A DNA stretch of 32,000 nt, taken from contig NZ_QLME01000001.1 of the NCBI RefSeq assembly GCF_003259895.1, positions 26,152 through 58,151 on the forward strand, read 5' to 3'. The notes beneath the pieces were generated by a model. That model was not told where the DNA came from. It did not search any database and was given only the letters and a program-made list of their open reading frames with translations. Made by a program: the position numbers and the translations under genes. Positions 6,962-24,250 of the stretch are shown here, one piece after another (position 1 is the first letter of the stretch; the number at the start of each line of letters is the position of its first letter). The stretch is from Halanaerobium saccharolyticum (GTDB lineage Bacteria; Bacillota; Halanaerobiia; Halanaerobiales; Halanaerobiaceae).

Positions 6962-7176
6962 TAATAAATTATACTGCCATTGTTTAATCCCTTCGTTAGA
7001 TAATGTGAATAGTTGTACATTATGCTGATTAATGATATAATTAATCCCAGAAAATAATCCAGCAGAACTTTAAGTCTGGTAATAGTATTCTTCCTGAGTC
7101 CAGGGCAGCTGCCTGAAACAGGGGAAGGGTCTTTATAAAATCTGATTTTTTATCAGCTATATTTCATAAAGCAGCC

Positions 7177-8592: not shown

Positions 8593-8617
8593 ACCCTTTC
8601 TAAATAAGGAGGAAATA

Positions 8618-10045
8618 ATGCTTAAAGACGAAACTAATAACTCAGCCAGAAATATCAGGACTGAGGAAGACAGTATCGGCAAAAAAGAAATTTCTGCTGC
8701 AGCCTATACAGGTATCAATACTGCCCGGGCCCGGGAAAATTTTTCTATCAGCCGGGAAAGTGTTCATCCAGAGTTAATTAAGGCTATTGTAATGGTTAAA
8801 CAGGCAGCAGCATTAACCAACCAGGAACTTGGACTGCTTGAGCCAGAAAAAAGCGATGCCATTGTTAAAGCTGCAGCAGAGATCACAGCAGGTAAGTTAA
8901 GTCAGGAATTCAAACTGGAGGCACTGCAGGGAGGAGCCGGAACCTCAACCAATATGATGGTCAATGAGGTAATTGCCAACCGGGCTCTGGAGATTCTGGG
9001 CCATAAAAAAGGTTCTTATCAAATTATCCATCCCAATGATGATGTTAATCAGGGCCAGTCAACAAATGATGTCTACCCAACTGCTCTCAGAATTGCAGTT
9101 TTAAAACTGCTGCAGCCGCTTACTGAATCTGCGGCCAGTCTGCAGCAGGCACTGCAGGAAAAAGAAAAAGAATTCGCTGCCATAATTAAGCTGGGCAGAA
9201 CCCAGCTTCAGGATGCAGTTCCCATTACTCTGGGGCAGGAATTTTCTGCCTATGCAGAAGCTGTCAATAGAGACCGCTGGCGCCTGTATAAAATTACAGA
9301 CCGCCTTAAAAAAATAAATCTGGGAGGAACTGCAGTTGGAACCGGGCTCAATACTTCCCGCAGCTATATTTTTAAGATAGCCAAACATATACGGCAGATT
9401 AGTGGTTTAAGCCTCTCTCATTCTGAAAATATGATAGATATAACCCAGAACATGGATCTATTTGTTGAAGTCTCCGGCTTATTAAAAGCTACAGCTGTTA
9501 ATCTGAATAAAATTGCCAGTGATCTGAGGCTGCTGGCTTCAGGACCAGCAGGTGGAATTGGAGAAATAAAGCTGCCGGCAGTTCAGGCAGGTTCTTCTAT
9601 TATGCCGGGAAAGGTTAATCCGGTAATCTGTGAGCTGATTAATCAGCTGTCAATTGAAATAATCTGCAGTGACCAGGCAGTAACCATGGCAGCCAGAGAC
9701 GGTCAGCTGGAACTGAACGCCTTTTCCCCACTTATCGCTCATAAAATTTTAAATATGCTCGAAATGATGCGAAAGGGAATAGATAAATTTATTAATAAAT
9801 GTATTCAGGGAATTGAGGCCAATCCGGATAGATGCAAAAATTTACTGGAAAGCAGTCTGGCTGTAGTTACAAGTTTAGTTCCCTATATTGGTTATGATCA
9901 GGCCAGCAAACTGGCTGAAGAGGCTATGGAACGGGACAGGACTCTAAAGGAATTGGTTTTAGAAAAAAATCTTTTAAGTCCACAAAAGCTGGTAGAAATC
10001 TTAAAAACAGAAAAAATGACTTCACCAGGCCTAGTAAAAAATTAA
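8618..10045 (+). CDS. aspA: Aspartate ammonia-lyase (fumarate-lyase superfamily)
   Basis: Lyase signature GSSIMPGKVNPV. AspA-like N-terminus (RTEEDSIGKKEISAAAYTGINTARARENF), plus TNDVYPTA and TQLQDAVPITLGQEF. AAGGAGG lies 25 nt after the hydF stop. Confidence 0.85.
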   Translation: MLKDETNNSARNIRTEEDSIGKKEISAAAYTGINTARARENFSISRESVHPELIKAIVMVKQAAALTNQELGLLEPEKSDAIVKAAAEITAGKLSQEFKLEALQGGAGTSTNMMVNEVIANRALEILGHKKGSYQIIHPNDDVNQGQSTNDVYPTALRIAVLKLLQPLTESAASLQQALQEKEKEFAAIIKLGRTQLQDAVPITLGQEFSAYAEAVNRDRWRLYKITDRLKKINLGGTAVGTGLNTSRSYIFKIAKHIRQISGLSLSHSENMIDITQNMDLFVEVSGLLKATAVNLNKIASDLRLLASGPAGGIGEIKLPAVQAGSSIMPGKVNPVICELINQLSIEIICSDQAVTMAARDGQLELNAFSPLIAHKILNMLEMMRKGIDKFINKCIQGIEANPDRCKNLLESSLAVVTSLVPYIGYDQASKLAEEAMERDRTLKELVLEKNLLSPQKLVEILKTEKMTSPGLVKN

Positions 10046-10130: not shown

Positions 10131-11234
10131 TCAGCCCCAGATCTCTTCTGCAATTTCAACAATTAATTTTAACTTCTGCCACTGATCTTCCTGACTCAGC
10201 TGATTACCATGATGGGTAGAAGCAAAACCACACTGAGGACTGAGGCAGAGCTGACTAAGAGGTATATATTCTGCTGCCTGCCTGATCCTGGCTTTTACTT
10301 TTTCTTTATCCTCCAGCTGACCATCCTTGGAAGTAATTAGACCCAGCACTACCTTTGTCTTTCCTTCAGGAATGTACTTTAAGGGTTCAAAACCACCTGA
10401 ACGCTGATCATCGTATTCCAGAAAAAAACCATCTACCTTTTCCCTGGCAAATAAAGTAGGGGCAATTAAATCATAACTGCCAGAAAAAGCCCAGCTTGAC
10501 TTATAATTCCCCCGACAGAGATGAGTAGTTAGCGATAGATCAGGCGGCTTCACTTCAAGTACACCATTGACCACTTCTAATGCCAGTTCAATTAGATATT
10601 CTCGTGAGAATGGCGCGTCTTGATAAGAAATATCGGGAGAAGAAAGACTGGCAATATAAACATCATCAAACTGCAGATAGCGAACTCCAGCCTCGTAAAA
10701 AGCTTTAAGTGCATCCTGATAGGTCTCAATTATATCCTGTGCATAGTCTTTAATATCTGGATAAATTTCTGAATTCCTAATTCCAAAATGAAACAGCTGA
10801 TTGGGACTCGGGATTGTCTGTTTAGCTGCTGCCCTTCCGTCAACAATTTTATTAAATTCTTTAAAATACTTAAGAAAAGAATGATCAGAATTAAAACTAA
10901 TTTTACCAGTATTACGGACATCATAGGCTTCTGTTTCCAGGTCAGCAAACTGATAACCTTTTTCCGGTACATACCCTTCAAAACCATTCAACTCTTCCAG
11001 AAAGTCAAGGTGCCACCAATCACGTCTAAACTCACCATCTGTAACAAGTTTAAGTCCGGCTTCCAGCTGTTTATTTACCGCTTTTTCTACTTCTTCTCTT
11101 TCAATCTGATGCAGTTCAGCTGCTCCTATTTTCCCTTGCTTAAAATTACTTTTAGCTTTCAACAGCCTCTTCGGCCTCAGTAAACTTCCAACATGATCAG
11201 CCCGAAAAGGTGCCTGAATTTGATCTGCTCCCAT
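10131..11234 (-). CDS. Cobalamin-independent methionine-synthase-like protein (MetE C-terminal domain family, YxjG/YxjH type)
   Basis: Contains FRADHVGSLLRP, TDGEFRR and a C-terminal ...SPQCGFAS, typical of the MetE-like Zn/homocysteine-binding fold. I moved the start from 11321 to the ATG at 11234 because AGAGGAGGAG sits 8 nt upstream of it. The 29-aa extension in the ORF track covers the predicted promoter. Confidence 0.8.
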   Translation of the reverse strand: MGADQIQAPFRADHVGSLLRPKRLLKAKSNFKQGKIGAAELHQIEREEVEKAVNKQLEAGLKLVTDGEFRRDWWHLDFLEELNGFEGYVPEKGYQFADLETEAYDVRNTGKISFNSDHSFLKYFKEFNKIVDGRAAAKQTIPSPNQLFHFGIRNSEIYPDIKDYAQDIIETYQDALKAFYEAGVRYLQFDDVYIASLSSPDISYQDAPFSREYLIELALEVVNGVLEVKPPDLSLTTHLCRGNYKSSWAFSGSYDLIAPTLFAREKVDGFFLEYDDQRSGGFEPLKYIPEGKTKVVLGLITSKDGQLEDKEKVKARIRQAAEYIPLSQLCLSPQCGFASTHHGNQLSQEDQWQKLKLIVEIAEEIWG

Positions 11235-11262
11235 AATTAAAACTCCTCCTCTTAAAAATTTT

Positions 11263-11291
11263 ACTTTACTTAAGTATATCATTTTAAGCAG
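11263..11291 (-). promoter_or_regulatory. Sigma-A type promoter for the MetE-like gene
   Basis: On the minus strand: TTGGAA (11291-11286), a 17-nt spacer, then TATACT (11268-11263), about 30 nt upstream of the ATG at 11234. Confidence 0.55.
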
Positions 11292-11357
11292 TTTTTTCCA
11301 ATTATCAGAGCAGGACAGCATAATTTTTACTGAAAGAGCAAAATATATATCTATCTT

Positions 11358-12623
11358 TTACAGAAAGCTCTCCCCACTTTCAGGTGCCCTGACTTCAAAA
11401 TAATCCGCAATTGCTGCTGCTATATCAGCCAGACTTTCGCGGGGCGGCAGTACTTTTGCTGGTAAATCTTTTTTGTAAACTAAAAGGGGGACGTTTTCTC
11501 TGGTATGATGGCTGTGGCCTACAGTTGGATCATCACCATGATCAGCTGTAATAATAAAAAGGTCGTCTTCTCGTAAATTATCTATAATCTCCGGTATCTG
11601 CTGATCCACCATTTTTAAGACTCTGGCAAATTCTGCCGGATCCTGCTGATGACCTGCCAGATCAGTTTCCTGGACATTAACGGCAATCAGACCGGAATCA
11701 GCCTCCTCCATTTCCTGCTGCATCAGTTCCAGCACTTCTTCGGTTGCAACAGCAGGCAGTGATTTTCTGGCTTCTGGACAGTAGATTACATCCTGCACTT
11801 TACCAATCAAGCGGACATCTATCCCCTGGCCGGCCAGAATTGAAGTGATCTGTTTTTGATGATCAATTCCATAACCAAGATGGATTACCTGATAACCCTC
11901 TCCATAAACCCCGGAAGCTGTAGAATTAACACCTGTAATCTCAGAATTAGCATTCTCAATACTGTTAACAATCCTCTCAGTGCTTGTATTCTTACCGCCC
12001 AGCGCGATTACCCGACTGACTTTAACACTTGCTCTTACAATTTTTCCGATTGCAAGTATTTCTTCAAAATCTATCTCTTCTAATGAACCGCTGACATTGT
12101 AAATCTGCCCGTAATCAGCCTCAATATTATCCGCAACCACAACCCGCCGATCAACAAGCAGATAGGGATTTTCCTGGTCAGGCACACTAACTTTGTGCCC
12201 TTCATTTTCCAGAGCAGTCTTAACCTTTTGATGCACAACTTTAAAAGGCTGTATTTTAGGATGGGTCGGACTGGAACCCATAATTTCCTGATGTCCCATA
12301 AATGTATCTGCTCCATCATAACTTAAAGCAGCATAAGTATAAGCAGCTTTAAGTTTTTGTTTTTCACTTCCATTTTCCGTCAAATTTCGCTGTTCCGGAT
12401 CCATTTCCAATGTACTTTTGGGAAAACTTGGATCAAGTCTGCTTAAATTATAAGCCGCCTCCAGACCCAGCTGATTAAGGTTATTCAATTTTAAATCTTT
12501 ATTACTTTTTAAAACATTTCCCAGTGTATCTGCGGCCTGATCCTGCAGCCGCTGCTGTTCTTTGAGGTCATCCATTGCTCCAATTCCAAGTCCATCTAAA
12601 ATTAATAAAATTACTCTCTTCAA
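11358..12623 (-). CDS. yhfW: YhfW-like phosphopentomutase-family metalloenzyme (alkaline-phosphatase superfamily)
   Basis: N-terminus KRVILLILDGLGIGAMDD and C-terminal ITADHGDDPT...HTRENVPLL are DeoB/metalloenzyme motifs. 421 aa, against ~408 aa for E. coli YhfW. The start overlaps the upstream gene stop by 4 nt. Confidence 0.8.
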   Translation of the reverse strand: MKRVILLILDGLGIGAMDDLKEQQRLQDQAADTLGNVLKSNKDLKLNNLNQLGLEAAYNLSRLDPSFPKSTLEMDPEQRNLTENGSEKQKLKAAYTYAALSYDGADTFMGHQEIMGSSPTHPKIQPFKVVHQKVKTALENEGHKVSVPDQENPYLLVDRRVVVADNIEADYGQIYNVSGSLEEIDFEEILAIGKIVRASVKVSRVIALGGKNTSTERIVNSIENANSEITGVNSTASGVYGEGYQVIHLGYGIDHQKQITSILAGQGIDVRLIGKVQDVIYCPEARKSLPAVATEEVLELMQQEMEEADSGLIAVNVQETDLAGHQQDPAEFARVLKMVDQQIPEIIDNLREDDLFIITADHGDDPTVGHSHHTRENVPLLVYKKDLPAKVLPPRESLADIAAAIADYFEVRAPESGESFL

Positions 12624-13816
12624 AGCCTGCTCCCTCCTTTTTCGTCTAGCAGTTGTCCCTGACTATTATAAATTCCATGCAGTTTTAATTTACCGTTTTG
12701 TATACCGCTAATCACAGCCACTCTGGCTCTGGTAACAAAAATCTGAGTTCTAAAAGCATAGAGTACTGTGTCTCCAATCTTCAATTTTCGATCTCTATTT
12801 TCCAGCGAAGCATAATAATCAATCATCTCAGAATCTGGCTGTGAGGCTGAATAAACTCGACTATTATTTTGATAGTCATCAGCAGCTACCAGTCCATTTT
12901 TTAAGTGGGAACGGCTGTAAAAGCCGCCGCCAAAAGTATATGCCTTGTCATCTTTTAAATGAGATATTTCAGAAATATAGATCATTGCCGGTTTTTCTCC
13001 CTGATCATAATAACCGTGATAAGGGGTAGTTCCTGTCAGGGCATGTCCCGGCTCCCCGTGAGTTGCTCCAGCAGCAGCCAGCCTTGGAATCGTCTTCTGA
13101 CAGCTGACACTTGGGGTATTTAACTGTTCAATTTCCAGCCCAAATTTTTCATTTAAAATTTCCCCTGTCTTTATCACCAGCTCTAAATTGGGAGTAGTTT
13201 CAATTTTTTTAGTCTGATAGTTAAATAAAAGGCAGGGAAAAGCTGTCAGCCCTTTAATTTCAACTCCCTTAAGCTTCATCAATTCAGGGATTACCTGATC
13301 TATATTTTTTAAATCAAAACCTCCAATCTGACCTTCATAATTAAATGAATCCTGACTGTAGATTCTGAGCATTATCGGCTGCACCCTATTCTGCTCCAGG
13401 GCCAACTTCGAAATTTGTTCTGCTTTTTGAAGGCTGTAGACAGTCATAATTTCCGGCTGATAAGCTATCATTTCTGAGAGCATAGAAGTCGGAACCTGAA
13501 CTAGATGACCGACATTTCCCAGTTCAATCCCTGCCTGCGCCAGAGTTCTGGCCTCCCAGGGATCCACAGCAACCGCCTTTTTAATTCCCGCTTCCACTAC
13601 CGCCTGAGCTGCCAGTGGATTTCTCCCCAGCTGTTTGCTCATAAAGTAGAGACTCAAATTATTCTCTGCTGCCGCTTCTGCCATCATAGCCGTATTAGCC
13701 TGAATCTGGTCCAGGTCTAAAATATATGTATTTGGTTCTAAAATATTTTTTCTGTGTAAATAAAAAGCTGTCTCAATTAATTCTGGATTTCTCTGCTGCA
13801 TTTTTTTTAAAAACAT
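12620..13816 (-). CDS. yhfX: YhfX-like fold-type III PLP enzyme (alanine-racemase N-terminal domain; predicted amino-acid racemase family)
   Basis: 398 aa. The N-terminus MFLKKMQQRNPELIETA...LDLDQI...LYFMSKQLGRNP resembles E. coli YhfX as I remember it. The Lys in MSKQ is the likely PLP lysine. Confidence 0.75.
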   Translation of the reverse strand: MFLKKMQQRNPELIETAFYLHRKNILEPNTYILDLDQIQANTAMMAEAAAENNLSLYFMSKQLGRNPLAAQAVVEAGIKKAVAVDPWEARTLAQAGIELGNVGHLVQVPTSMLSEMIAYQPEIMTVYSLQKAEQISKLALEQNRVQPIMLRIYSQDSFNYEGQIGGFDLKNIDQVIPELMKLKGVEIKGLTAFPCLLFNYQTKKIETTPNLELVIKTGEILNEKFGLEIEQLNTPSVSCQKTIPRLAAAGATHGEPGHALTGTTPYHGYYDQGEKPAMIYISEISHLKDDKAYTFGGGFYSRSHLKNGLVAADDYQNNSRVYSASQPDSEMIDYYASLENRDRKLKIGDTVLYAFRTQIFVTRARVAVISGIQNGKLKLHGIYNSQGQLLDEKGGSRL

Positions 13817-13818
13817 GA

Positions 13819-14928
13819 TTATCCCTGCCCTTTTAAAGCGGATATAGTTTCTTTAATGATTCTAATAACTGTATCAGCACCGGCCCGCATCGGATTAATC
13901 CGCACCAGATATTTTTCTGCTTCCGGATTTTCCTGTCTAAAAGTTCCCGAAATCCTGTAAAACATGGCTCCAATCTCATAGCGTGATTCTGAACCAACAG
14001 GATAGGGCACCCCTCCCTGCTCATTAACTGCTGCCAGAAAATCACGGGCTATTGCCTGCTCAAATTCTATAATCACAACTTTAGACTGAGCATTGGCAAT
14101 AAATGAATTTTTAACCGCTTCAACTTCTCCCTGATTGAGGCGCTGATTAACCTCTTCTACAGTCTGAGCCTGAATTGCCAGACTGACAGGTGTATTTACC
14201 ATGGACCGGAGAGCATCCATCGCCTCTGGACCCTGCACCTGACTGCCGCCCGAATAATTAATTGCTTCAACTTTATCTAAATATTTTTTCTTACCCACAA
14301 GCAGTCCGATTCCAGGTGGTCCCTGCAGTTTAAAAAGCGAAAAAGTACTCAAATCAGCACCTCTTTCAACCCCAATTTGCTCAACTTTCATTGCTGCATA
14401 GTTGTCATCTGTGATTATTGGTGTTTCGGGATATTTGGCCTTCAATATTTTTATAACTCTGCCAAAATCATAGCTGTCATCTATTTTCTGACGGCTGTGC
14501 TGAACTAAAATAGCTGCAAAATCTTCTGCCGGCAGCAATTTCTGAGCTTCCATTTCCTTTAAGCGATTGAAATCAAATTTTTTAGTTTCTAAATCCATGC
14601 TTTTAAATGTTACTTCAGTTGTTGGATAAACTGCTGCCTCGTGAATTAAAACTTTAGACCCCACCTCAAGATTGGCATTGAAAAAAGCTCTAATTGCACC
14701 AGTGCCTGCTCCTCTAACTAAAAGAGCCTTTTCCGCCCCAAAAAAGTCTGCCAGAACCTTCTCGACTCTGGCTGTATAGCGGGGCTTTTTAAATTCGGGG
14801 TCAAGTCCATAGTCACCTGCCTGCAAAAGCTCTGCTCCCTTAAATTGGCGCTGAATTGCATCTACAAGTTTCTGCTGCAATTTTATGGCTTGTTCCAGGC
14901 TAAGTGATTTAAGAGGATAAGTCTGCAT
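13819..14928 (-). CDS. yhfS: YhfS-like fold-type I PLP-dependent enzyme (aminotransferase/SelA-like)
   Basis: The motif FSLFKLQGPPGIGLLVG resembles the PLP-lysine loop of SelA-like enzymes. I chose the start at the second ATG (14928) because GGAGG lies 8 nt upstream of it, whereas the ATG at 14943 has no RBS. The resulting N-terminus MQTYPLKSLSLEQA resembles E. coli YhfS. Confidence 0.75.
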   Translation of the reverse strand: MQTYPLKSLSLEQAIKLQQKLVDAIQRQFKGAELLQAGDYGLDPEFKKPRYTARVEKVLADFFGAEKALLVRGAGTGAIRAFFNANLEVGSKVLIHEAAVYPTTEVTFKSMDLETKKFDFNRLKEMEAQKLLPAEDFAAILVQHSRQKIDDSYDFGRVIKILKAKYPETPIITDDNYAAMKVEQIGVERGADLSTFSLFKLQGPPGIGLLVGKKKYLDKVEAINYSGGSQVQGPEAMDALRSMVNTPVSLAIQAQTVEEVNQRLNQGEVEAVKNSFIANAQSKVVIIEFEQAIARDFLAAVNEQGGVPYPVGSESRYEIGAMFYRISGTFRQENPEAEKYLVRINPMRAGADTVIRIIKETISALKGQG

Positions 14929-14960
14929 TTTTAAAACCTCCATTTATAAAATAATAGCTT

Positions 14961-15857
14961 TTATGAAAATAATTTTGCCGGATTATGAATCAGGATGCCT
15001 TCAATCTCTTCTTCGCTTACAGCTGCTGCTTTTAATTTAGGAATAAATTTTTCAAAAAGATACTGATAACTGTGGCCGTCATTTGCTTTTAAATGTGACA
15101 TCCGGGTAATATCTGTCGAAATTAAAACTTGATCTTTAAACCCTGCTTTAAGCAGGGCCTTAATCAGTCTAATTCTGAATTGATCACTCTGGTATTTTAA
15201 CTTACCAATGGTATCAATGCCGATAAATACTCCTCTGGCGGCAAGCTCCAGCACATAATCAATATCAGCTGCCAGATCAAGATGACTGAGGGCCACCCGG
15301 GATAAATCTGCACCGGCTTTTTCTAAAATTTCAAGCTGCTCCAGACCACAGCTGCCAAGTGTCAGGTGGGTAATAATCGGAACTCCTGTCTCCTTCTGGG
15401 CGAGGGCGGCAGCCTGCAGTAATTTTTTCTCAGCTGCAGTTATTTCCTGACTGGTGCCAACTTCTCCAATCACACCGGCTTTAATATCTGTCCCCTCAAT
15501 CCCTTCCTTAATTTCGCTGACCATTAATTCGACCAGTTCCTGTTTAGTCTTTTGGTAGAAAAAATCTGGCAGATAGGGTTCTTTGTAAAAGCCTGTGCTG
15601 GCAATAATATTCATTCCCAGCTGATCAGCCAGATAGCGGAGTCTTGCTGTATCTCTTCCCATCCCGATATTAGTCAGTTCGACAATCGTTTTAACTCCGG
15701 CCTTTTTTATTTCTTTAAGATCCTGCAGCAGAGCCTCACCTTCCAGCCGGGCATCGGGATCATTTTTCTGCTCTGTAAGATCTATAGTTAAATGTTCGTG
15801 ATACATTGTAATTCCCATCGCTTCTGCTTTTATTTGTTTATTCAAAGTATTGATCAA
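14961..15857 (-). CDS. php: Phosphotriesterase-homology protein (Php/YhfV; amidohydrolase superfamily, COG1735)
   Basis: Metal-binding HxH near the N-terminus (MYHEHLTIDL), TIM-barrel-length protein of 298 aa. TTG start at 15857 with AGGAG 9 nt upstream. Overlaps the upstream gene by 20 nt. Confidence 0.85.
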   Translation of the reverse strand: MINTLNKQIKAEAMGITMYHEHLTIDLTEQKNDPDARLEGEALLQDLKEIKKAGVKTIVELTNIGMGRDTARLRYLADQLGMNIIASTGFYKEPYLPDFFYQKTKQELVELMVSEIKEGIEGTDIKAGVIGEVGTSQEITAAEKKLLQAAALAQKETGVPIITHLTLGSCGLEQLEILEKAGADLSRVALSHLDLAADIDYVLELAARGVFIGIDTIGKLKYQSDQFRIRLIKALLKAGFKDQVLISTDITRMSHLKANDGHSYQYLFEKFIPKLKAAAVSEEEIEGILIHNPAKLFS

Positions 15858-16962
15858 AATTATCAGCTCCTAAAAAATCATTTTCTTTTTCAGCATAATT
15901 TTTGAGAAAATATCTTGCAAAAAGTTCCGGCCGCTTATAGCATTTTTGTAAACGCTCAGCCAATTTAATCACTTTAAATCCATTTTTTATACCTGGTCTG
16001 GCCAGTAAAACTATAGCAAGACCGAGCCTGTCAGTGGGGATAGTAACAGCAGTTGCATTGACCAGATTGGCTGCCCGCATTAGATATTTACCGCTCTTTT
16101 TCTGGGCAGCCTCAGCAATTTTAAAACTGCCGGCAACAGAATCACCATAACCATAATAATCAACAGGTCCTTCTGCAGTTATTATAATCTCATTTCCCTG
16201 CTCAAACGCCTTTTCTATAATCTGAATTGCCTGTTTTCGATCTTCACTGCCCTTAAGATTAATTCTATTTAGATTAAAATCACTCAACTCAGCTTCTATT
16301 TCTGCAGTTACAGCAGCCATATCTTCTCCCTGAGGTAATAAAACACTTTTCACCTCAGGCAGAGCAATAGTCAGATCTTTGTTTAACTCAACATCTTTAC
16401 TCAAAGCCCACTGCTCTGGGGCAAGAATCTTTTTTAAAGCCAGAGTGCAGAGTTTAAAATCGTGAGAAATAAAGCCGATTCCAGGCCTGAATTCTAAATT
16501 ATCAGTTGAAATTCTCTTGTTAGTTGCCTGAAGTCCCATACCTTTAGCCATCAGGGAAGACAGAGAAACCGAGGCTGCAGGAGCTAAAACTGAACCTCCA
16601 CCATCTGTTCCCACCGCAAGATCGTTTATTCCCCGGAGAATATTTAGACAGCCTCCACTGCTGGAACCAGTCATCACTCTCAAAGTTAAAGGATTGATTA
16701 GCTCAGGATCGACTGCTCTCCCACCTCTGGCCATCTTATCAATTGTATGTAAAAGAAAAGTCTGATCCTCAGTTAATTTATCCACTAATTTTTTTGAAAT
16801 TTGAGAGGTGTTTTTAATACCCAGCAGATAATGTTCTTGCCTGGATTCGGCCAATTCTGACAGCCTCTTTTTCAGGCCGCTGTTGTGATAAACCACTGCT
16901 TTAGAACTGCTGGCAAGAGCATTATTAAATTTTTTCTTTAAATCCAGGTTTAAATTATTCAT
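15838..16962 (-). CDS. Short amidase-signature (AS)-like protein
   Basis: The core MTGSSSGGCLNILRGINDLAVGTDGGGSVLAPAA aligns by eye to the AS motif GGSSGG...G(S/T)DxGGSIRxPAA. At 374 aa it is ~100 aa shorter than typical AS amidases. Confidence 0.65.
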   Translation of the reverse strand: MNNLNLDLKKKFNNALASSSKAVVYHNSGLKKRLSELAESRQEHYLLGIKNTSQISKKLVDKLTEDQTFLLHTIDKMARGGRAVDPELINPLTLRVMTGSSSGGCLNILRGINDLAVGTDGGGSVLAPAASVSLSSLMAKGMGLQATNKRISTDNLEFRPGIGFISHDFKLCTLALKKILAPEQWALSKDVELNKDLTIALPEVKSVLLPQGEDMAAVTAEIEAELSDFNLNRINLKGSEDRKQAIQIIEKAFEQGNEIIITAEGPVDYYGYGDSVAGSFKIAEAAQKKSGKYLMRAANLVNATAVTIPTDRLGLAIVLLARPGIKNGFKVIKLAERLQKCYKRPELFARYFLKNYAEKENDFLGADNFDQYFE

Positions 16963-16976
16963 ATTTACTCCTTAAT

Positions 16977-17010
16977 TTGAGCCCGAAAATTTTAGAATTC
17001 CCGGGCTCAA
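16977..17010 (-). promoter_or_regulatory. Intercistronic stem-loop between the yhfT-like and amidase-like genes
   Basis: TTGAGCCCG (16977-16985) and CGGGCTCAA (17002-17010) are perfect complements with a 16-nt loop. No U-tract follows on the minus strand, and the amidase RBS (AAGGAG) comes immediately after. Confidence 0.5.
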
Positions 17011-17022
17011 TTTCAATTGTAT

Positions 17023-18303
17023 TTAGACTAAAGAAAATAAAGCGAAAATATTAGCAATAATACCAACCATTATAGCTGCTGTAGGTCCAACTGCCATTCT
17101 TACTATTGGCTGATCTCCAATTTCGTTTAAAATATAGAGTCCGGCCACAAAGAAAAACCCAAATCCTGGTATGATTGCATTGGCAGCATTCATACCTCCA
17201 ACTAAGAGGGCTACTTCTAAAACTTTAGACATCGAAGTCCTAATATTATCACCGGCTTTTTTAATTCCAGGAAACTTATCAAGCAGAGTTGCAACTTTAC
17301 CCAGTAATAAAATCTCTATGGAAATAATTACAGCACCTACAATTGCAGCAATCAATGGGTTCTGAATAAATAGAGCCGCTGCAAAAATAAATGTCATTCC
17401 TACAGGCCCATATACTCCTGTAGCTATTGCTGTAGTAGCAATTAAAGGAACAAAACCAACTGCTCTGGCTAAAGCAGCAAGTGCAGCTTCATTTATTGCA
17501 CCCTCACTTACTAAGTTTAAGGAAATAGGATCTCCTGCCAGAATTAGATAAGCAGTAGCAGCCGAAACTAATCCACCCATCACAGCTAAATAGGGTAAGT
17601 TGCTTTTAATTCTTTCCACCCTTTTACTAAAAATTGAAACTAAATCACCAACATTACTTTCTTCTCCCTTTTCTCCAGCGGCGAAGATTAATAAGGTTGT
17701 CATACCAGCAATTAGTGCCATTCCTTCGGGATTAATACTTATTTCAAGACCATTAATCATTAAGGGGCTAACAACAACTGCAATTTGTCTCACTATTCCA
17801 GTAAGGATTAAAGTAAATCCACCTTTTTTGATTCCAAACTGATAAGCAACAGCCAGGGCAGGGAAAGCAGCAAAGGCTACAACTATTGGACTACCTACAG
17901 CTCCCAGATCTTCTAAAAAGTTAACAGGTAAAACTTCAAATAAATTTACAATTGCTTCCAGACCATAAGTTAAACCAACACCATATAGAGCACCAACTAC
18001 TCCAGCGCCAGCTGCACCTTTGTTATTATCTGGGGCCCAGGTACCAATAATATCTGTACCCAATAAAATACTATGTATTAAAATAATATTTGCCGATAAA
18101 CTAAATGGAATTCCAAAACCAACAACCAGACCAAAACTCATAGCAAAAGAAGTAGCAGCAAGTTCTTTACGGCTCATTCTATTTTCTACATATTCTGGTA
18201 TTACCGGACGCAAACTATCATTAAATACAGCAATCCCCTTATTTGCAAGTATAGCAGCCATTCCACCAATTAAAGCCATTAGTATTAATTGCATTATTCT
18301 CAC
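17023..18303 (-). CDS. yhfT: YhfT-like polytopic inner-membrane protein (putative transporter)
   Basis: 426 aa, highly hydrophobic and Gly/Ala/Ile-rich with at least 10 predicted helices by eye. Its size matches E. coli YhfT (434 aa) and it sits next to a DUF2620 gene, as in E. coli. Confidence 0.75.
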   Translation of the reverse strand: MRIMQLILMALIGGMAAILANKGIAVFNDSLRPVIPEYVENRMSRKELAATSFAMSFGLVVGFGIPFSLSANIILIHSILLGTDIIGTWAPDNNKGAAGAGVVGALYGVGLTYGLEAIVNLFEVLPVNFLEDLGAVGSPIVVAFAAFPALAVAYQFGIKKGGFTLILTGIVRQIAVVVSPLMINGLEISINPEGMALIAGMTTLLIFAAGEKGEESNVGDLVSIFSKRVERIKSNLPYLAVMGGLVSAATAYLILAGDPISLNLVSEGAINEAALAALARAVGFVPLIATTAIATGVYGPVGMTFIFAAALFIQNPLIAAIVGAVIISIEILLLGKVATLLDKFPGIKKAGDNIRTSMSKVLEVALLVGGMNAANAIIPGFGFFFVAGLYILNEIGDQPIVRMAVGPTAAIMVGIIANIFALFSLV

Positions 18304-18327
18304 TCCCGTTTTTTGTTAGACTTTACT

Positions 18328-18684
18328 TTAGTTTAAAATGTTCTTTAATAAAAGAGTCACAGCTTTTTCTAAATGATCTGAAGTAAAACCAAAAGCAACT
18401 TTTCCTGCTTCAAGTTCTTCAACTATTTTTTCCTCTTTAGGTGGCTTAGCAGGCATTGAAATCGTAGCGCATTTAGTGCTGCTCAAGATTGCCATGGCCA
18501 TTCCTAATGCTCCTCCACCACCGGTATGACAGGCACCAAAATAATAATCAGCTTTTCCCTGCTTAATTGTATTCGCCGCTTTAATATCATCCATGATCTC
18601 TACCTCTACTTGATCACCGGCAATTTCTTTAATTTTTTTAGCAATTTTTTGTTTGTCAACCTGACCGCCTACAACTATCTTCAT
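18328..18684 (-). CDS. yhfU: YhfU-like DUF2620 protein
   Basis: 118 aa. ADYYFGACHTGGGGALGMAMAIL and GKVAFGF match the E. coli YhfU sequence as I remember it (DYYIGACNTGAGAAL, GKVAFG). The start codon overlaps the yhfY-like stop by 1 nt (TAATG). Confidence 0.8.
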   Translation of the reverse strand: MKIVVGGQVDKQKIAKKIKEIAGDQVEVEIMDDIKAANTIKQGKADYYFGACHTGGGGALGMAMAILSSTKCATISMPAKPPKEEKIVEELEAGKVAFGFTSDHLEKAVTLLLKNILN

Positions 18685-19058
18685 TATTTATTCCCCCCCT
18701 CTTTTTTTATTAAATTACCAAAATGTAAAACTAAATAATTTTTTTCTCCAGCTGGAATTTCAATTTCGGTTTCAGCTTCAATTTGCTCTATAAAATCCAT
18801 ACAGTCAGAATAAAATTTTTCTTTTTTTAACTCTGCTAAAACCATCTCATTTAAATCTTCTACTTCTTCACCTTTTTTTATCCTCATCAGAGCCATCGGT
18901 AAATGGGTTACCAGCATTGCTGCATTCTCATTTTTTAATTCTAAATTAAAATCTGATTCAAACTTTTTCAATAAACTTTCTATCTTTTTCTTTAGTTCTG
19001 TTTCCAGTTGATCACCTTCAACTAAAATCTCTAATCTCTGTTTTAATTTAGGATCCAT
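18684..19058 (-). CDS. yhfY: YhfY-like stand-alone PRD-domain protein
   Basis: 124 aa all-helical protein with two His-centred segments (AAMLVTHLPMALMR and NYLVLHFGNL) resembling PRD phosphorylation sites. Same size as E. coli YhfY (~120 aa). Confidence 0.7.
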   Translation of the reverse strand: MDPKLKQRLEILVEGDQLETELKKKIESLLKKFESDFNLELKNENAAMLVTHLPMALMRIKKGEEVEDLNEMVLAELKKEKFYSDCMDFIEQIEAETEIEIPAGEKNYLVLHFGNLIKKEGGNK

Positions 19059-19068
19059 TCTCTTCCTC

Positions 19069-20004
19069 CTAATACTCAGGAATTAATTTGTGATTATATA
19101 CTTCTTTTTGAGCTTTAATTACCTCTTCAGGATCAATTGTCTTGGCTAAAATCCTCTTAATCATTCTGCTGTTTTTATTAACCAAAATTACCGCATTACT
19201 GATATCTTTATTTTTGGCAGTCGATTTATCATTCTGCAGTTCAGTAAAGTTTATATTATCAAGGTCTTTAATCTCATCATAATTCCAGACTGCTGCATCT
19301 ATAGTTTTATTTTTTATATGCTCCATTATTTTCATGTAGGTCAATTCTATAAATTCTACATCCTGATTTTGACATTCCAGCTTTGTTAGTATCTTATGAT
19401 CAATAGAAGTTGAATCAAGTCCAACTTTCATCCCATTTTCAATTTTTGCAGCTTCCGGATCCGAAAAAACTATCACATGTTTAGAAAGATAGGTACCCGG
19501 TCCAAATTCACAAAAAAGTTCAAATTGATCCCGATCTTCATGATTCTGGGCAGCAAATTTAGATAAAACAATAAAATCATATTTATCATCTTTTAAGACA
19601 TTCAATCGTTTTTCCGCACCTCTGGTATAGGCAATACTGTAATTAAAATCTGCTTTTTTAAACTCCTGATTTAATCCAGTTGCCAGCCCCTCATAACGCA
19701 GAGAATAAGGCAGTGGTAAAAGTCCCATTATCATTCCTAAATCTGCAATTTCCCAGAGCAGGTGATAATCTAAATCAAGAATATAGCTGCCTAAATGTCC
19801 TTTTGATTCCAGCTCTACAGCCTGATGTTCAGTTAAAAATGATATTGCAGACTGGATAGTGCCTCGTCCGGTGTTATAGCGCTCCGCATAACCACTAATT
19901 GTATCAATTCTTTCGCCTTTGTTTTTTAAGAAAAAATCCCGGGCCAGCATTGAAGTTATGAAGCCGATTTTTGACATCATTTTGCTCTTTATTTCAGAAA
20001 CCAT
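19069..20004 (-). CDS. yhfZ: YhfZ-like transcriptional regulator (N-terminal winged HTH plus C-terminal binding-protein-like domain)
   Basis: 311 aa, against ~301 aa for E. coli YhfZ. HTH-like segment ISGYAERYNTGRGTIQSAISFLTEHQAVELESKGHLGSYI. GGAGG lies 6 nt upstream of the ATG at 20004. First gene of the operon. Confidence 0.75.
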   Translation of the reverse strand: MVSEIKSKMMSKIGFITSMLARDFFLKNKGERIDTISGYAERYNTGRGTIQSAISFLTEHQAVELESKGHLGSYILDLDYHLLWEIADLGMIMGLLPLPYSLRYEGLATGLNQEFKKADFNYSIAYTRGAEKRLNVLKDDKYDFIVLSKFAAQNHEDRDQFELFCEFGPGTYLSKHVIVFSDPEAAKIENGMKVGLDSTSIDHKILTKLECQNQDVEFIELTYMKIMEHIKNKTIDAAVWNYDEIKDLDNINFTELQNDKSTAKNKDISNAVILVNKNSRMIKRILAKTIDPEEVIKAQKEVYNHKLIPEY

Positions 20005-20023
20005 TTAATTCCTCCTTTTTAAT

Positions 20024-20080
20024 ATACAATTTTCTGTACAATAGAATAAAAATAAAATACAATGTACTGTATTCTGTATA
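20024..20080. promoter_or_regulatory. Two inverted-repeat operator candidates, ATACA-N6-TGTA(C/T), plus an extra TCTGTATA half-site
   Basis: ATACAattttcTGTAC at 20024-20039 and ATACAatgtacTGTAT at 20057-20072 are 33 bp apart centre to centre. TCTGTATA lies at 20073-20080. All sit between the predicted -10 and the yhfZ-like RBS. Confidence 0.5.
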
Positions 20081-20082
20081 TT

Positions 20083-20111
20083 AGTTTAGCATAAGATTTA
20101 AAATTTTGCAA
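20083..20111 (-). promoter_or_regulatory. Sigma-A type promoter of the yhf-like operon
   Basis: On the minus strand: TTGCAA (20111-20106), a 17-nt spacer, then TAAACT (20088-20083), directly downstream of a terminator. Confidence 0.5.
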
Positions 20112-20130: not shown

Positions 20131-20164
20131 AAAAACTGCAGCCCATAACTGCCTGAGCTGCAGC
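20131..20164 (-). terminator. Rho-independent terminator after the NagB-like gene
   Basis: On the minus strand, GCTGCAG/CTGCAGC stem arms (plus-strand 20136-20142 and 20157-20163) are followed by TTTTT (plus-strand A-run 20131-20135). Confidence 0.65.
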
Positions 20165-20201
20165 CATTACAATCTTAAAATCATTTATTTAAACTCATAT
20201 T

Positions 20202-20939
20202 TTATAACAATTTAGCCGAATCTTCATCTAAAAAGACATCTGTACTTTTATGCTCTTTTAAAATTGAGGCAGGACAGTCAACTGTAACTTCATCACCAGC
20301 TAAACAATTCTTAACTGCCTCAGCTTTTCTGGCGCCGGGTACTGTGCAGATAATATTTTCGGACTTCATAATTTGTTTAACTGTCATCGTAATCGCATTT
20401 TTTGGAACATCAGCAATAGTCTCAAACCAGCCTTCTTTAACCTGCTGTTTTCTGGAAACATCATCCAGCTCAACAATAATAAATGGATCCTCTTCTTCAA
20501 AATCTGCAGGTGGTTCATTAAAAGCCAGATGACCATTTTCACCTATGCCAACAAATGCAGCCTGAATTTTATCTTCTTCCTTAATTTTTTGATTTAAGCT
20601 CTGACATTCTTTTTCCGGATCATTCATCCCATCTATTAAGTTAATTTCTTTTAATTCACCAACTTCAGAGATAAAGTTTTCTTTAATATATTTTCTAAAA
20701 CTAGCCTTATGAGTTTCGTCTAGCCCGAGATATTCATCTAAATGATAAAGTTTAGTTTTGGACCAATCTATATCATCGAATTCTACTAATTCAGCTAAAA
20801 AATCAAGTTGAGAATTACCGGTAGCGATGATAAATACTGCTTCCCCATCTTTTTCGATGCTTTCAATCAAAATTTCTCTAGCTCTTTCTGCGGCGTATTT
20901 ACTTGTTGTTTTTTTGTCCTGATAAACATTTATTTTCAT
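20202..20939 (-). CDS. Glucosamine-6-phosphate deaminase/isomerase family protein (NagB-like)
   Basis: 245 aa. Motifs ATGNSQLDF, YHLDEYLGL and GIGENGHLAFNEP align by eye to NagB motifs (PTGGTP, NMDEYVGL, GVGNDGHIAFNEP). AGGAGG RBS. Confidence 0.8.
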   Translation of the reverse strand: MKINVYQDKKTTSKYAAERAREILIESIEKDGEAVFIIATGNSQLDFLAELVEFDDIDWSKTKLYHLDEYLGLDETHKASFRKYIKENFISEVGELKEINLIDGMNDPEKECQSLNQKIKEEDKIQAAFVGIGENGHLAFNEPPADFEEEDPFIIVELDDVSRKQQVKEGWFETIADVPKNAITMTVKQIMKSENIICTVPGARKAEAVKNCLAGDEVTVDCPASILKEHKSTDVFLDEDSAKLL

Positions 20940-21195: not shown

Positions 21196-21834
21196 CTAAA
21201 CTTCTCTGGCCTTTGCTATTTTTTCAACAAAAGCCGCCGCAGTTTGAGTCACTTTATCAAAATCTCCAGTTTTGGCACCAGCAGTAAGGGAACTGCCAAC
21301 TCCAACCGCTGCACTTCCGGCCTTAATCCATTCTGCAACATTATCCAGACTAACTCCTCCAGTAGGCAGCAGTGGTGCCTGGGGTACTGGTCCTTTAATT
21401 GCTTTGATGATCTTTGGTCCAAAAAGCGAGGCCGGGAAAATTTTAACTAAATCAGCACCCGCTTCCATAGCTTTTACTACCTCAGTTACTGTCATTGCTC
21501 CCGGGATTACAGGCTTCTGATATCTATTAGCTAACTTAACCATCTCCTCATTAAAAGAGGGACTGACAATGTATTCCGCCCCTGCCAGAATACAGGTTCT
21601 AGCAGTTTCGGCATCCAGAACAGAACCAGCTCCTATTATGATCTCCTCTCCCTCAAATTCTTTACTTAATTCAGAGATAACATCCACCGCTCCGGGAACT
21701 GTCATGGTGATTTCCAGACCTTTTATTCCTCCTTTTTTGACTGCCCGCGCAATCTTGACTGCCTCATCTCCATTTTGAGCTCTAATCACAGCAACGATAC
21801 CTGTTTCCTGCAGTTTATTAATTGTATTCATCAT
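21196..21834 (-). CDS. eda: KDPG / 4-hydroxy-2-oxoglutarate aldolase family protein (Eda-like)
   Basis: TIM-barrel class I aldolase pattern (GIVAVIRA, GGIKGLEITMT, VKIFPA, PTGGV). I moved the start to the ATG at 21834 (GGAAGG upstream). The longer ORF-track start at 21882 lies inside the kinase gene. Confidence 0.8.
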   Translation of the reverse strand: MMNTINKLQETGIVAVIRAQNGDEAVKIARAVKKGGIKGLEITMTVPGAVDVISELSKEFEGEEIIIGAGSVLDAETARTCILAGAEYIVSPSFNEEMVKLANRYQKPVIPGAMTVTEVVKAMEAGADLVKIFPASLFGPKIIKAIKGPVPQAPLLPTGGVSLDNVAEWIKAGSAAVGVGSSLTAGAKTGDFDKVTQTAAAFVEKIAKAREV

Positions 21835-23287
21835 AATCATCCTTCCGCTTAGTTTTTTGATACCAGTATTTATACTTCTCAAACCGCGACTGATAAAATT
21901 GATGCCGCTCTAAATTAAAATCGATAACTTTACCAGCTTCTGGCTGATAATTACTTAAATCTTTAATTTCTCCCAGAGCCTTTAGCCCCAGGATTATTGA
22001 TCCCATCGTCGAAGAATCTTTAAATTCCGATACAATCATTTTTCTTCCAAAAATATCGGCAGCCATCTGCAGCCACTTCTCAGAATTTGTAATACCACCA
22101 GAAATCCTTATTTTTTCCGGTTTTAAACCCATTTCTTCAATAATTAAATAGGACTGGTAAAGGTTGAATAAAACTCCTTCCAGAATTGAATAATATAAGT
22201 CGGCAGATAAATGGCTGCCTTTCAGCTCACAGAACTGGGCTTTTCGCTTATCCTGCCAGCCGGGACATCGCTCACCATAAATAAAAGGCAAAAAAATTGG
22301 AGCTTTATTTTTGTTTACATCTTTGAGAGAGTTTTCTAATTCCATGAAGTTAGAATCATTTTCTTTTATCTTATTTTTAAACCACTGAGTACAGTTGCCG
22401 GCCCCAGAAGTAGCTGCCCCGACTATCCTTTTTCCTTCAGCCCCATAATAGCACCAGGTAGCTGGTGCAGACGGAATTTTAGCTTTACTGGATGTAACCC
22501 GCAGGGCCCCGCTGGTGCCAACCGAGAGGGTCATCAGCTTAGATTTTAAACCACCTGCCGCTATCTGATTAAGAGCTCCATCTGGTCCGGGAATTAAGAC
22601 AGGCAACCCAGGTTTTAAGCCAAGTTTTAGCGCCGCTTTTTTAGTTAAGCCAGCCTGATAATTAAGTTTTTTTAGTGGTGATAACTGTTTGGCTGAAAGA
22701 CCGGCAAAATCAAGTATTTCCTGGTCCCAGCTGAGATCATGAATATTAAAGATCCCTGTTCCCGAAGCTGATGCTAGAGAAATTGCCCGGCTTTTAGTTA
22801 ATTTCTCAAAAATATATTCTGGTTTAGATGAAAGATAGATTTGATCCACTTTAAAGCTGCTTTTATCTAAATTCATAAACTTCCAGAGAGGATAAATACT
22901 GTGCACAGGACAGCCTGTTTTTTGATATATCTTTTGAGCTAATTTTTTCTTTTTTCTGTACTTTGACACTGTCTCACCGGCAGAGGTATCAGCCCAGGTT
23001 AAAATCTCAGTCAGGGGCTTTCTATCCTGATCTAAAAGCAGGAAGCTGTGCCAGGTGCTGACCAGAGTTATTAATTCTATCTTGTTTTTTTCTGCCTGAG
23101 TCAGATCATTAATTAACTGCACAGCAGTCTTGATAATAAAATTATATAAAAGCTGGGCTGACTGCCTTTCCATATCTCCAGTCGTCTGCTCATAATTTTT
23201 GCTTAGATTTTTAATAATTCCCTTTGCCCGGGAAAACAGTGTCACTTTAACAGCTGAAGTACTAAACTCCAGAGCCAGAATGTACAT
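21818..23287 (-). CDS. FGGY-family carbohydrate kinase (gluconokinase/xylulokinase-like)
   Basis: 489 aa. The N-terminus MYILALEFSTSAVKVTLF aligns to the FGGY phosphate-1 motif, and the C-terminal RISGGITNSEKWLQMAADIFG to the FGGY signature-2 region. GAGGAGG RBS. Confidence 0.8.
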   Translation of the reverse strand: MYILALEFSTSAVKVTLFSRAKGIIKNLSKNYEQTTGDMERQSAQLLYNFIIKTAVQLINDLTQAEKNKIELITLVSTWHSFLLLDQDRKPLTEILTWADTSAGETVSKYRKKKKLAQKIYQKTGCPVHSIYPLWKFMNLDKSSFKVDQIYLSSKPEYIFEKLTKSRAISLASASGTGIFNIHDLSWDQEILDFAGLSAKQLSPLKKLNYQAGLTKKAALKLGLKPGLPVLIPGPDGALNQIAAGGLKSKLMTLSVGTSGALRVTSSKAKIPSAPATWCYYGAEGKRIVGAATSGAGNCTQWFKNKIKENDSNFMELENSLKDVNKNKAPIFLPFIYGERCPGWQDKRKAQFCELKGSHLSADLYYSILEGVLFNLYQSYLIIEEMGLKPEKIRISGGITNSEKWLQMAADIFGRKMIVSEFKDSSTMGSIILGLKALGEIKDLSNYQPEAGKVIDFNLERHQFYQSRFEKYKYWYQKTKRKDDYDEYN

Positions 23288-23311
23288 TTTTTACCTCCTC
23301 AAATATCAATA

Positions 23312-24127: not shown

Positions 24128-24250
24128 TTTAAACCTCCTAATTTTCTCGCTAAATTTAATCTGTTATCTCCAATCAATCTTTTCTGAGCCTGAGTCCAGT
24201 CCTCTCCTAATTTCAGGCCAATCATTTGCATCCTAATTCTGGCTAATTTT

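Follow-up and report, generated by a model that had tools for sequence, protein, structure and literature searches.

The closest described relative of the system reported here is the yhfS-yhfZ cluster of Escherichia coli K-12 (b3376-b3383), a set of eight tightly packed genes on one strand. The cluster is near-core in the species, where it was found in 5084 of 5426 complete genomes (94%), and it abuts the fructoselysine operon. A function has not been assigned to it, and its RefSeq gene labels remain 'putative'. We analysed a cluster of the same type in a 32-kb window of the genome of Halanaerobium saccharolyticum ('the window' means this whole stretch of 32,000 nucleotides), in which nine open reading frames (ORFs) run in the same direction on the minus strand from position 20004 to position 11358 and encode the eight yhf families together with an amidase-signature-like protein. 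No functional study of the yhf cluster, and no physiological substrate for it, was found in the searchable full-text literature, where YhfW and YhfZ are labelled uncharacterised or putative even in articles of 2025-2026; the view of the preliminary description of this DNA, that no substrate or role has been assigned to such clusters, is thus upheld.

Two other systems are comparable in their layout. The dga (D-glucosaminate) operon of Salmonella resembles what is proposed below for yhf: it is an inducible catabolic operon with dedicated uptake, it acts on a phosphorylated 2-amino compound, and it uses a SelA-like fold-type I pyridoxal phosphate (PLP) enzyme, DgaE, a SelA-related ammonia-lyase. 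It differs in having a canonical mannose-type phosphotransferase system (PTS) and an aldolase of the 2-keto-3-deoxy-6-phosphogluconate (KDPG) type, and in lacking a phosphotriesterase (PTE)-family hydrolase, a fold-type III PLP enzyme and a mutase. The cluster known from EF_0829-EF_0839 and AHA_3910-3917 encodes, going by TIGRFAM descriptions, a PRD-only protein, a 'glycine-rich SFCGS' protein, membrane proteins, a SelA-related enzyme and an amidohydrolase. Compared by these descriptions, its architecture parallels that of yhf, with a PRD-only protein, a Cys/Gly-rich protein next to membrane proteins, a SelA-like enzyme and a member of the amidohydrolase superfamily. Its protein families are different, however, with only sub-threshold similarity to those of yhf, and it is also uncharacterised.

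A complete yhf-type gene cluster in H. saccharolyticum

The ORF list of the window places all nine genes where the preliminary description had put them, as a tightly coupled minus-strand set. Three junctions overlap, by 1 nt (yhfY/yhfU), 20 nt (amidase-like gene/php) and 4 nt (yhfX/yhfW), and the other gaps measure 2 to 60 nt. BLASTP was run reciprocally within a set of 17 proteins, nine from the window and eight from the cluster of K-12. It gave eight full-length mutual best matches, with E-values ranging from 1e-15 to 1e-124 and identities from 27 to 49%. The catalytic residues are the same in the two clusters. The best matches among solved structures were the E. coli proteins PHP (1BF6/4LEF), YhfS (4J8L), YhfX (4KBX) and YhfZ (2OZZ), of which the last three were deposited as uncharacterised or hypothetical.

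Pfam and NCBIfam scans led to the same assignments. YhfZ carries HTH_41 and YhfZ_C domains and reaches the cutoff of the NCBIfam equivalog YhfZ_full (373 bits, cutoff 260), and YhfW reaches that of the PRK12383 mutase model (515 bits, cutoff 254). YhfY was recognised as a PRD protein, YhfU as DUF2620, Php as PTE, YhfS as YhfS-like_C plus Aminotran_5 and YhfX as YhfX-like_C plus Ala_racemase_N, while YhfT matched its family with 574 bits. In the NCBIfam scan, no model matched YhfT, YhfU, YhfS or YhfX as a family. From the scans and the mutual best matches, we conclude that all eight families are present, contiguous and on one strand, as had been proposed.

The likely starts of yhfT (ATG 18294, 423 aa) and yhfS (ATG 14928, 369 aa) were chosen from the position of the ribosome-binding site (RBS) and the public gene call. 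The 20-nt overlap between the amidase-like gene and php hinges on a TTG start, 9 nt upstream of which lies an AGGAG motif. No riboswitch or other known RNA was detected in the 32-kb window. The tight spacing, the overlapping junctions and the presence of one conserved promoter/operator would fit a single predicted yhf-type catabolic operon. The features of the locus are listed in Table 1.

Table 1. Coordinates of the predicted features of the yhf-type locus, in window positions
Feature	Positions	Strand	Remarks
NagB/AgaI-family deaminase-like gene	20202..20939	-	divergent member; own terminator, no YhfZ box; directly upstream of the cluster
Terminator-like hairpin	20131..20165	-	CTGCAGC...GCTGCAG and T run; ends the upstream NagB-like gene and separates it from the yhf promoter
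Predicted sigma-70-type promoter	20083..20111	-	-35 TTGCAA (20111-20106), 17-nt spacer, -10 TAAACT (20088-20083)
Predicted operator O1	20063..20080		TATACAGAATACAGTACA; one mismatch to TRTACA-N6-TGTAYA; begins 2 nt past the -10 box
Predicted operator O2	20023..20040		TGTACAGAAAATTGTATA; exact TRTACA-N6-TGTAYA; just upstream of the yhfZ RBS
yhfZ	19069..20004	-	GntR-like HTH_41 and YhfZ_C ligand-binding domain; predicted repressor; best structure match PDB 2OZZ
yhfY	18684..19058	-	stand-alone PRD protein
yhfU	18328..18684	-	DUF2620; model has RpiB-like alpha/beta fold
yhfT	17023..18294	-	polytopic membrane protein, presumed permease; longest ORF to 18303
Intercistronic hairpin, yhfT/amidase-like gene	16977..17010	-	15 bp, no U tract
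Amidase-signature-like gene	15838..16962	-	short, 374 aa; accessory module member
php	14961..15857	-	PTE-family binuclear metallohydrolase, E. coli PHP subgroup
yhfS	13819..14928	-	fold-type I PLP enzyme; longest ORF to 14943
yhfX	12620..13816	-	fold-type III PLP enzyme
yhfW	11358..12623	-	phosphopentomutase-like, alkaline-phosphatase superfamily

Gene order and conservation across genomes

Of 8000 candidates scored in a search with YhfT, 1568 were relatives at E<=1e-10, and a scan with one genome per species placed such loci in at least 557 species of several phyla. Eighty loci were fetched with 10-kb flanks and the window proteins were mapped onto their ORFs; the neighbourhood counts given below were made over 81 loci, unless 80 are indicated.

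At least five arrangements of the cluster were encountered. The order Z-Y-U-T-(Ami)-php-S-X-W (Ami stands for the amidase-like gene), which is that of the window, prevails in Bacillota and is also found in Petrotoga and Fusobacteriaceae. Enterococcus, Vagococcus and Streptococcus have U-T-php-S-Z-(Y)-X-W-Ami, and yet other arrangements are seen in Treponema, Symbiobacterium and some Negativicutes. The E. coli order was confirmed to be Z-Y-X-W-php-U-T-S. The window therefore does differ from E. coli, both in order and by its extra amidase-signature gene, but it should not be called 're-ordered', as in the preliminary description, since its order is the prevailing one in Bacillota and E. coli is the rearranged outlier.

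Through all these rearrangements, four adjacent pairs tend to be kept, namely U-T (76 loci), php-S (70), Z-Y (64) and X-W (64). Because the pairs persist, the argument that the cluster is a functional module rather than a case of inherited synteny holds. The amidase-like gene is a recurrent addition to the eight conserved families. As a further example of a known orphan cluster type, the window cluster is unsurprising, and by itself it brings no new biology.

Some individual loci may be mentioned. Two Negativicutes loci (L040 and L046) have two YhfT copies, in the arrangement Y-T-php-S-X-W-T-U-Ami, and a Parageobacillus genome (L048) carries a full yhf cluster. YhfT homologues also occur on large non-mobilizable plasmids or chromids of Cetobacterium somerae (NZ_CP092520.1), Bacillus thuringiensis (NZ_CP126475.1) and Vibrio halioticoli (AP024877.1).

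Promoter, predicted operator and regulators

A promoter/operator had been announced at 20024-20111. It is present, and the block is near-identical in another H. saccharolyticum strain (L002) and in H. salsuginis (L003), while the sequence farther upstream diverges. It contains two 18-bp inverted repeats, O1 and O2, which are the sole two matches to their pattern in the 32-kb window, compared with 0.12 expected. Two 7-mers were over-represented in 75 upstream regions of yhfZ: AATATAC, found in 45 of them (8.9 expected), and TGTACAA, observed 24 times (2.7 expected). The exact pattern TRTACA-N6-TGTAYA lies upstream of yhfZ in 26 of the 75 loci, including those of Clostridium, Thermoanaerobacter, Petrotoga and Bacillaceae, and so recurs across phyla, typically just after the -10 box. 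We predict that YhfZ uses TRTACA-N6-TGTAYA as its operator, a position from which it would repress transcription.

The second regulator, YhfY, has an invariant histidine (His52) and another (His112) that is present in 63 of 71 sequences. Its PRD domain is the sole basis for the earlier idea of 'PTS-style regulation', and the fold of YhfT is unlike that of a PTS EIIC.

Enzymes of the cluster

The residues named in this section are conserved in at least 95% of the 49 to 79 sequences compared per family. In Php, they comprise the six metal ligands (H20, H22, E132, H164, H192 and D249) as well as K31, R68, K219, R228 and R252; in YhfS, K205 and D179; in YhfX, K61; and in YhfW, a metal-ligand set of the alkaline-phosphatase type and the motif D106-(T/S)107-x-x-G-H-Q-E. 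Judged by these residues, the yhf enzymes look active.

The amidase-like protein is more divergent. Its residues K50, S100 and S124 are conserved to the same degree (49 sequences), in a motif that aligns to GatA (GGSS...GxDxGGS), and we take them to be the Lys/cis-Ser/Ser triad. The match to PF01425 scores 30.4 bits against a gathering score of 27 and covers residues 90-207 only, and all NCBIfam amidase models give 19 to 32 bits against cutoffs of at least 390. At 374 aa, with relatives mostly of 325 to 380 aa (maximum 413), the protein does not have the full-length architecture of about 450 to 500 aa. An NCBI protein of H. saccharolyticum matches it at 100% identity, and the yhf region corresponds to part of contig SOEH01000005.1 (GCA_004368825.1).

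Regarding YhfX, the nearest solved relatives found with its profile are alanine racemases and the D-threonine and D-3-hydroxyaspartate aldolases. YhfS gave weak matches to the SelA and DgaE families (E = 4e-4 for DgaE, TIGR01437).

Window Php is closest to E. coli PHP, with 248 bits to 1BF6/4LEF compared with 134 to PTER and 132 to 3PNZ. The PHP of Geobacillus caldoxylosilyticus is reportedly an esterase, and for E. coli PHP a weak esterase activity towards acetylated glycerol-3-phosphate has been reported in vitro. The preliminary description drew an analogy with lactonases. The characterised phospho-sugar lactonases of the PTE family, such as the phospho-furanose enzymes Lmo2620 and Bh0225, belong to a different subgroup, as cluster Php proteins score 100 to 131 bits with the phospho-furanose lactonase model NF045706, whose cutoff is 630. 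The possibility that Bh0225 is the Php encoded in the yhf cluster of B. halodurans was considered and rejected, since the Php of that cluster has 100 bits with the same model. The fold and the binuclear metal centre are nevertheless shared between window Php, PTER and the phospho-furanose lactonases, and the latter two act on esters, amides or lactones that are small and anionic, in keeping with the conserved Lys and Arg residues of cluster Php. PTER, a mammalian member of the PTE family, is an N-acetyltaurine hydrolase (PMC11374699). The PTE family is therefore able to cleave amides of small anionic amines.

The YhfU-YhfT pair

YhfU contains an invariant loop, ADYYxGAC-x-TGGGG, with Cys52 and Thr54 (GAC52-x-T54-GGGG), and a further invariant residue, H104. 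Its model (predicted local distance difference test, pLDDT, 96) was best superposed on RpiB structures, with template modelling (TM) scores of 0.61 to 0.69; for 1O1X and 3K7O, which have the RpiB-type fold, the TM-score was 0.69 and the root-mean-square deviation 3.3 A. In an hhalign comparison (probability 2%), C52 and T54 of YhfU were paired with the catalytic C66 and T68 of E. coli RpiB. With the RpiB/LacAB isomerases, YhfU would thus share the fold and the Cys-x-Thr-Gly loop after strand 3 (Cys66-Gly-Thr68-Gly in RpiB). It differs from them in being about 30 residues shorter, in showing no significant sequence similarity, and in being always encoded beside a membrane protein.

A link between DUF2620 and RpiB at the sequence level was looked for and rejected. 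A DUF2620 profile run against 1.84 billion representative proteins gave 180 matches, without reaching RpiB. The family is therefore small (180 representative clusters), and those extra-long members that were checked with Pfam proved to be DUF2620 proteins. PF02502 (LacAB_rpiB) did not match window YhfU and stayed below threshold for E. coli YhfU (13.6 bits, cutoff 24.7, E = 0.065). Window YhfU also had a sub-threshold Pfam match to Gly_rich_SFCGS (E = 0.0087). YhfU was rejected as an EIIB protein as well: the phosphorylatable Cys of EIIB sits in the loop after strand 1, whereas in YhfU residues 6-8 after strand 1 are Gly-Gly-Gln and Cys52 follows strand 3.

One natural-looking fusion of DUF2620 and PRD was found, in a 267-aa protein from a high-GC metagenomic sequence (P0418) that keeps a C-x-S-GGGG loop and has a linker rich in Pro, Ala and Ser. 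As its domains are in the order U then Y, it cannot be a read-through of the usual Y-U gene order. Two other fusions, P0380 (PTE-DUF2620) and P0425 (DUF2620-YhfT), were judged to be read-through or frameshift artefacts.

YhfT was modelled as an all-helical polytopic membrane protein (pLDDT 80). As a candidate PTS EIIC it was rejected, since it has no fold resemblance to solved EIIC proteins (best TM-score 0.22). A canonical PTS is not supported, while a functional connection between YhfU, YhfT and YhfY is plausible.

Accessory genes at yhf loci

The amidase-like gene is present in 48 of the 81 loci, in four different positions. Serine hydrolases of PF00144 (the beta-lactamase/DD-peptidase family) are encoded at 14 of 80 loci, and all of them have signal peptides or lipoboxes. 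A NagB-like gene occurs at ten loci besides the window and directly follows yhfW in nine diverse ones (L008, L009, L011, L013, L022, L027, L030, L035 and L064). The recurrence of exported PF00144 hydrolases and of NagB-like deaminases points to a fragment bearing an amino acid or an amino sugar that would be released outside the cell. Rarer neighbours are MupG (three loci), PfkB ribokinase-like proteins (three loci) and M23 peptidases (two loci).

A PHP-domain (HisJ-like) phosphoesterase is encoded at five Bacillaceae loci, and four of these (L036, L056, L059 and L062) are the only complete loci that lack YhfW. The PHP-domain gene comes directly after yhfX in L059, and in L056 after an exported PF00144 gene that itself follows yhfX. 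A phosphatase may thus be able to take the place of the YhfW mutase, although one evolutionary event could lie behind all these cases.

A predicted pathway and its alternatives

We consider it probable, although well short of certain, that the cluster is a YhfZ-repressed and possibly PRD-modulated operon for the uptake and breakdown of an anionic (probably phosphorylated) ester, amide or lactone that bears an amine. By occupying TRTACA-N6-TGTAYA, both at the transcription start and before the RBS, YhfZ would cause repression, and it would be released when an effector occupies its binding-protein-like domain; YhfY would modulate this repression through the phosphorylation state of its conserved histidines. 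The substrate would enter through YhfT acting together with YhfU, its constant partner, which is small and combines an RpiB-like fold with an invariant glycine-rich Cys-x-Thr loop. Php, joined by the amidase-signature protein where this is present, would then cleave the ester, amide or lactone bond of the anionic, probably phosphorylated compound. YhfX and YhfS (the latter a fold-type I PLP enzyme with a distant likeness to SelA, DgaE and the Cys/Met lyases) may act on the amino-bearing carbon, by inversion and by elimination or transamination, and YhfW may move or remove the phosphate. The sequences themselves show the composition of the cluster, its conservation, the intact active sites and the operator motif, while we infer in what order the steps occur, what YhfU does, that there is a link to PTS and to which class the substrate belongs; the comparative evidence is consistent with a phosphorylated, amine-bearing substrate class.

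Several observations weigh against this proposal or parts of it. The searched literature holds no experimental substrate, inducer or phenotype for the yhf cluster. Php stays below the cutoff of its NCBIfam equivalog, PRK09875 (284 bits, cutoff 486). No solved transporter fold matched YhfT (best TM-score 0.22), so that its role as a permease is deduced from topology and context. The likeness of YhfU to RpiB appears, from the model, to be at the level of the fold only (hhalign probability 2%, Pfam E-values of 0.0087 to 0.065), and YhfU presumably lacks the N-terminal Asp-His pair of RpiB. No kinase and no canonical PTS gene was found in the cluster or in the window, which leaves the source of the presumed phosphate unexplained. 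Neither E. coli nor the Enterococcus-type loci have the exact operator pattern of the window in front of yhfZ. Finally, the idea of one transcription unit has to reckon with a strong hairpin and with promoter-like matches within the cluster. The hairpin between yhfT and the amidase-like gene has a folding energy of -21.8 kcal/mol (z -4.7), and a hairpin of unlike sequence occupies the equivalent position in the other H. saccharolyticum strain (L002). Such a hairpin may have a part in mRNA stability or processing, giving separate levels to the regulator and transport genes and to the enzyme genes.

The alternatives differ mainly in the identity of the substrate and in the role of YhfU. A phosphorylated amino-sugar derivative (an amino-sugar acid, lactone, lactam or glycated amino acid) is a doubtful candidate that still deserves attention: Php would open or deacylate it, YhfS would act as a DgaE-like ammonia-lyase and YhfX as a C2 epimerase, YhfW and YhfU would rearrange the sugar phosphate, and the NagB-like enzyme, where present, would deaminate an amino-sugar phosphate. 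This would account for the RpiB-like fold and motif of YhfU, the phosphopentomutase-like YhfW, the PfkB genes, the matches of YhfS to SelA and DgaE, and the fructoselysine operon next to the E. coli cluster, and would agree with the lactonase activity of other PTE subgroups (NF045706). The scores of cluster Php with that model are nonetheless far below its cutoff, the similarity of YhfS to DgaE is marginal, and the conserved core has neither an aldolase nor a kinase. The NagB-like gene, although found beside yhfW in the nine diverse loci and beside the cluster in the window, is missing from most loci, and the window copy belongs to a separate transcription unit without a YhfZ box. A non-canonical group translocator of a PTS-like kind, made up of YhfU and YhfT, is rather unlikely. 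In it, the YhfU cysteine would be a phosphocarrier charged by HPr or EIIA, YhfT would be the membrane partner, the substrate would be phosphorylated on entry, and the PRD of YhfY would read the phosphorylation of YhfU and relay it to YhfZ. In other systems, no PRD domain is known that is not a target of PTS proteins. The invariance of His52 in YhfY and of the Cys in the glycine-rich loop of YhfU, the fact that U-T is the most conserved adjacency, and the presence of phospho-enzymes in a cluster without a kinase point the same way, as does the DUF2620-PRD fusion, although the U-Y link rests on this one protein. Against it, the YhfT fold resembles no solved EIIC or other transporter, the YhfU cysteine follows strand 3, as in RpiB, and not strand 1, as in EIIB P-loops, no gene for EI, HPr or EIIA lies in the window, and the cluster occurs in Petrotoga and Treponema, which would tell against it if these genomes lack a PTS.

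It seems to us improbable that the substrate comes from the cell envelope and bears a D-amino acid, as would a peptidoglycan piece or, from teichoic acids, the D-alanyl ester of glycerol phosphate or ribitol phosphate. The exported PF00144 hydrolases would release it, Php or the amidase would free the amino acid, YhfX and YhfS would convert the latter, and YhfW, or a phosphatase in some Bacillaceae, would deal with the polyol phosphate, YhfW by isomerising it. PF00144 is a family of DD-peptidases, D-aminopeptidases and D-amino-esterases, to which FmtA, a teichoic-acid D-amino esterase, belongs; the reported hydrolysis of acyl esters of glycerol-3-phosphate by E. coli PHP and the MupG and M23 neighbours would fit, the nearest characterised relatives of YhfX all handle D-centres, and YhfW is missing exactly where a PHP-domain phosphoesterase is present. 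All this is indirect, however, and the accessory genes concerned are found in a minority of loci. The four loci without YhfW are all from Bacillaceae, so the loss of YhfW and the gain of the PHP-domain gene may reflect a single evolutionary event, which counts against this substrate. Moreover, no role is left for the RpiB-like YhfU or the NagB-like gene, and teichoic acid is made neither by E. coli, where the cluster is near-core, nor by Halanaerobium, which also has it. A combination of such elements is a long shot: a PRD-coupled uptake and breakdown system of an unrecognised kind, in which YhfT, with a novel fold, and YhfU would phosphorylate or trap the substrate on entry and signal to YhfY, the substrates being aminoacyl (for instance D-alanyl) esters or amides of polyol or sugar phosphates freed from envelope polymers by the exported PF00144 enzymes, and YhfW converting an otherwise unusable phosphate isomer, with a phosphatase in its place in some Bacillaceae. 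We find it very hard to believe that the module is not catabolic at all and serves metabolite repair, detoxification or biosynthesis, with a membrane protein that exports or senses. Decades of phenotyping have yielded no growth substrate in E. coli, going by the absence of one from the literature, and yhfW and yhfZ surface only in stress and antibiotic screens. Yet the layout is that of a catabolic operon, with a ligand-binding repressor, a PRD protein, a membrane protein and hydrolases; the neighbours include exported hydrolases and deaminases; and the core has no ligase, synthetase or ATP-grasp enzyme.

Neighbouring genes in the window

Both flanking genes were examined as possible members of the operon. 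The NagB-like gene upstream keeps the GHxxFNxP core and has B. subtilis NagB as its nearest structure (98 bits). Its scores are below the nagB cutoffs (141 bits against 237 for TIGR00502, 150 against 326 for NF001684). Its inclusion in the yhf transcription unit was rejected for the window on account of the terminator 3' of it and the missing YhfZ box; a possible status is that of an accessory to the cluster.

Downstream of yhfW, at a distance of 123 nt, a gene for a short protein resembling cobalamin-independent methionine synthase (MetE-like) occupies 10131-11234 on the minus strand and scores 443 bits with PRK06520 (cutoff 313). The longer ORF, 10131-11321, was discarded as a tenth operon gene: the start is ATG 11234, with an AGGAGG RBS, no YhfZ box is present, and the gene has its own extended -10 promoter at 11301-11273 (TTGGAA, 17 nt, TGaTATACT). 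In addition, this gene is not found beside the cluster in other genomes, including those of two Halanaerobium species.

Farther upstream, a sugar-acid utilisation cluster occupies 21196-30196 on the minus strand. It encodes a tripartite ATP-independent periplasmic (TRAP) transporter (DctP/Q/M), two short-chain dehydrogenases/reductases, a D-2-hydroxyacid dehydrogenase, an FGGY gluconokinase-like kinase, a KDPG/2-keto-4-hydroxyglutarate (KHG) aldolase, and a LarA-family protein that scores 592 bits with the NCBIfam model 'nickel-dependent putative hexonate epimerase' (cutoff 500). On the other side, the end of the yhf operon faces convergent plus-strand genes at 7345-10045, which encode the [FeFe]-hydrogenase maturase HydF and an aspartate ammonia-lyase. 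A 105-aa ORF at 6644-6961 (plus strand), with a partial response-regulator receiver and a partial AraC helix-turn-helix, is probably a gene remnant; the region 5000-7000 is the stretch of lowest GC content in the window (0.275 to 0.307).

Significance

Of the operons in E. coli K-12 that are fully conserved yet have no assigned function, the yhf cluster is one of the larger ones, and the four of its proteins with solved structures are labelled as uncharacterised or hypothetical or, for Php, by homology alone. The comparison provides testable handles, namely the predicted YhfZ operator, the RpiB-like fold and candidate catalytic Cys of DUF2620, the absence of a solved structural relative for YhfT, and the recurrent accessory genes. 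The accessory set (amidase, exported PF00144 hydrolases, NagB-like deaminase and a phosphatase replacing YhfW) narrows the search for a substrate to amine-bearing anionic esters or amides, possibly derived from the envelope. Once this substrate is identified, thousands of genes of bacteria from the gut and the environment would gain an annotation.

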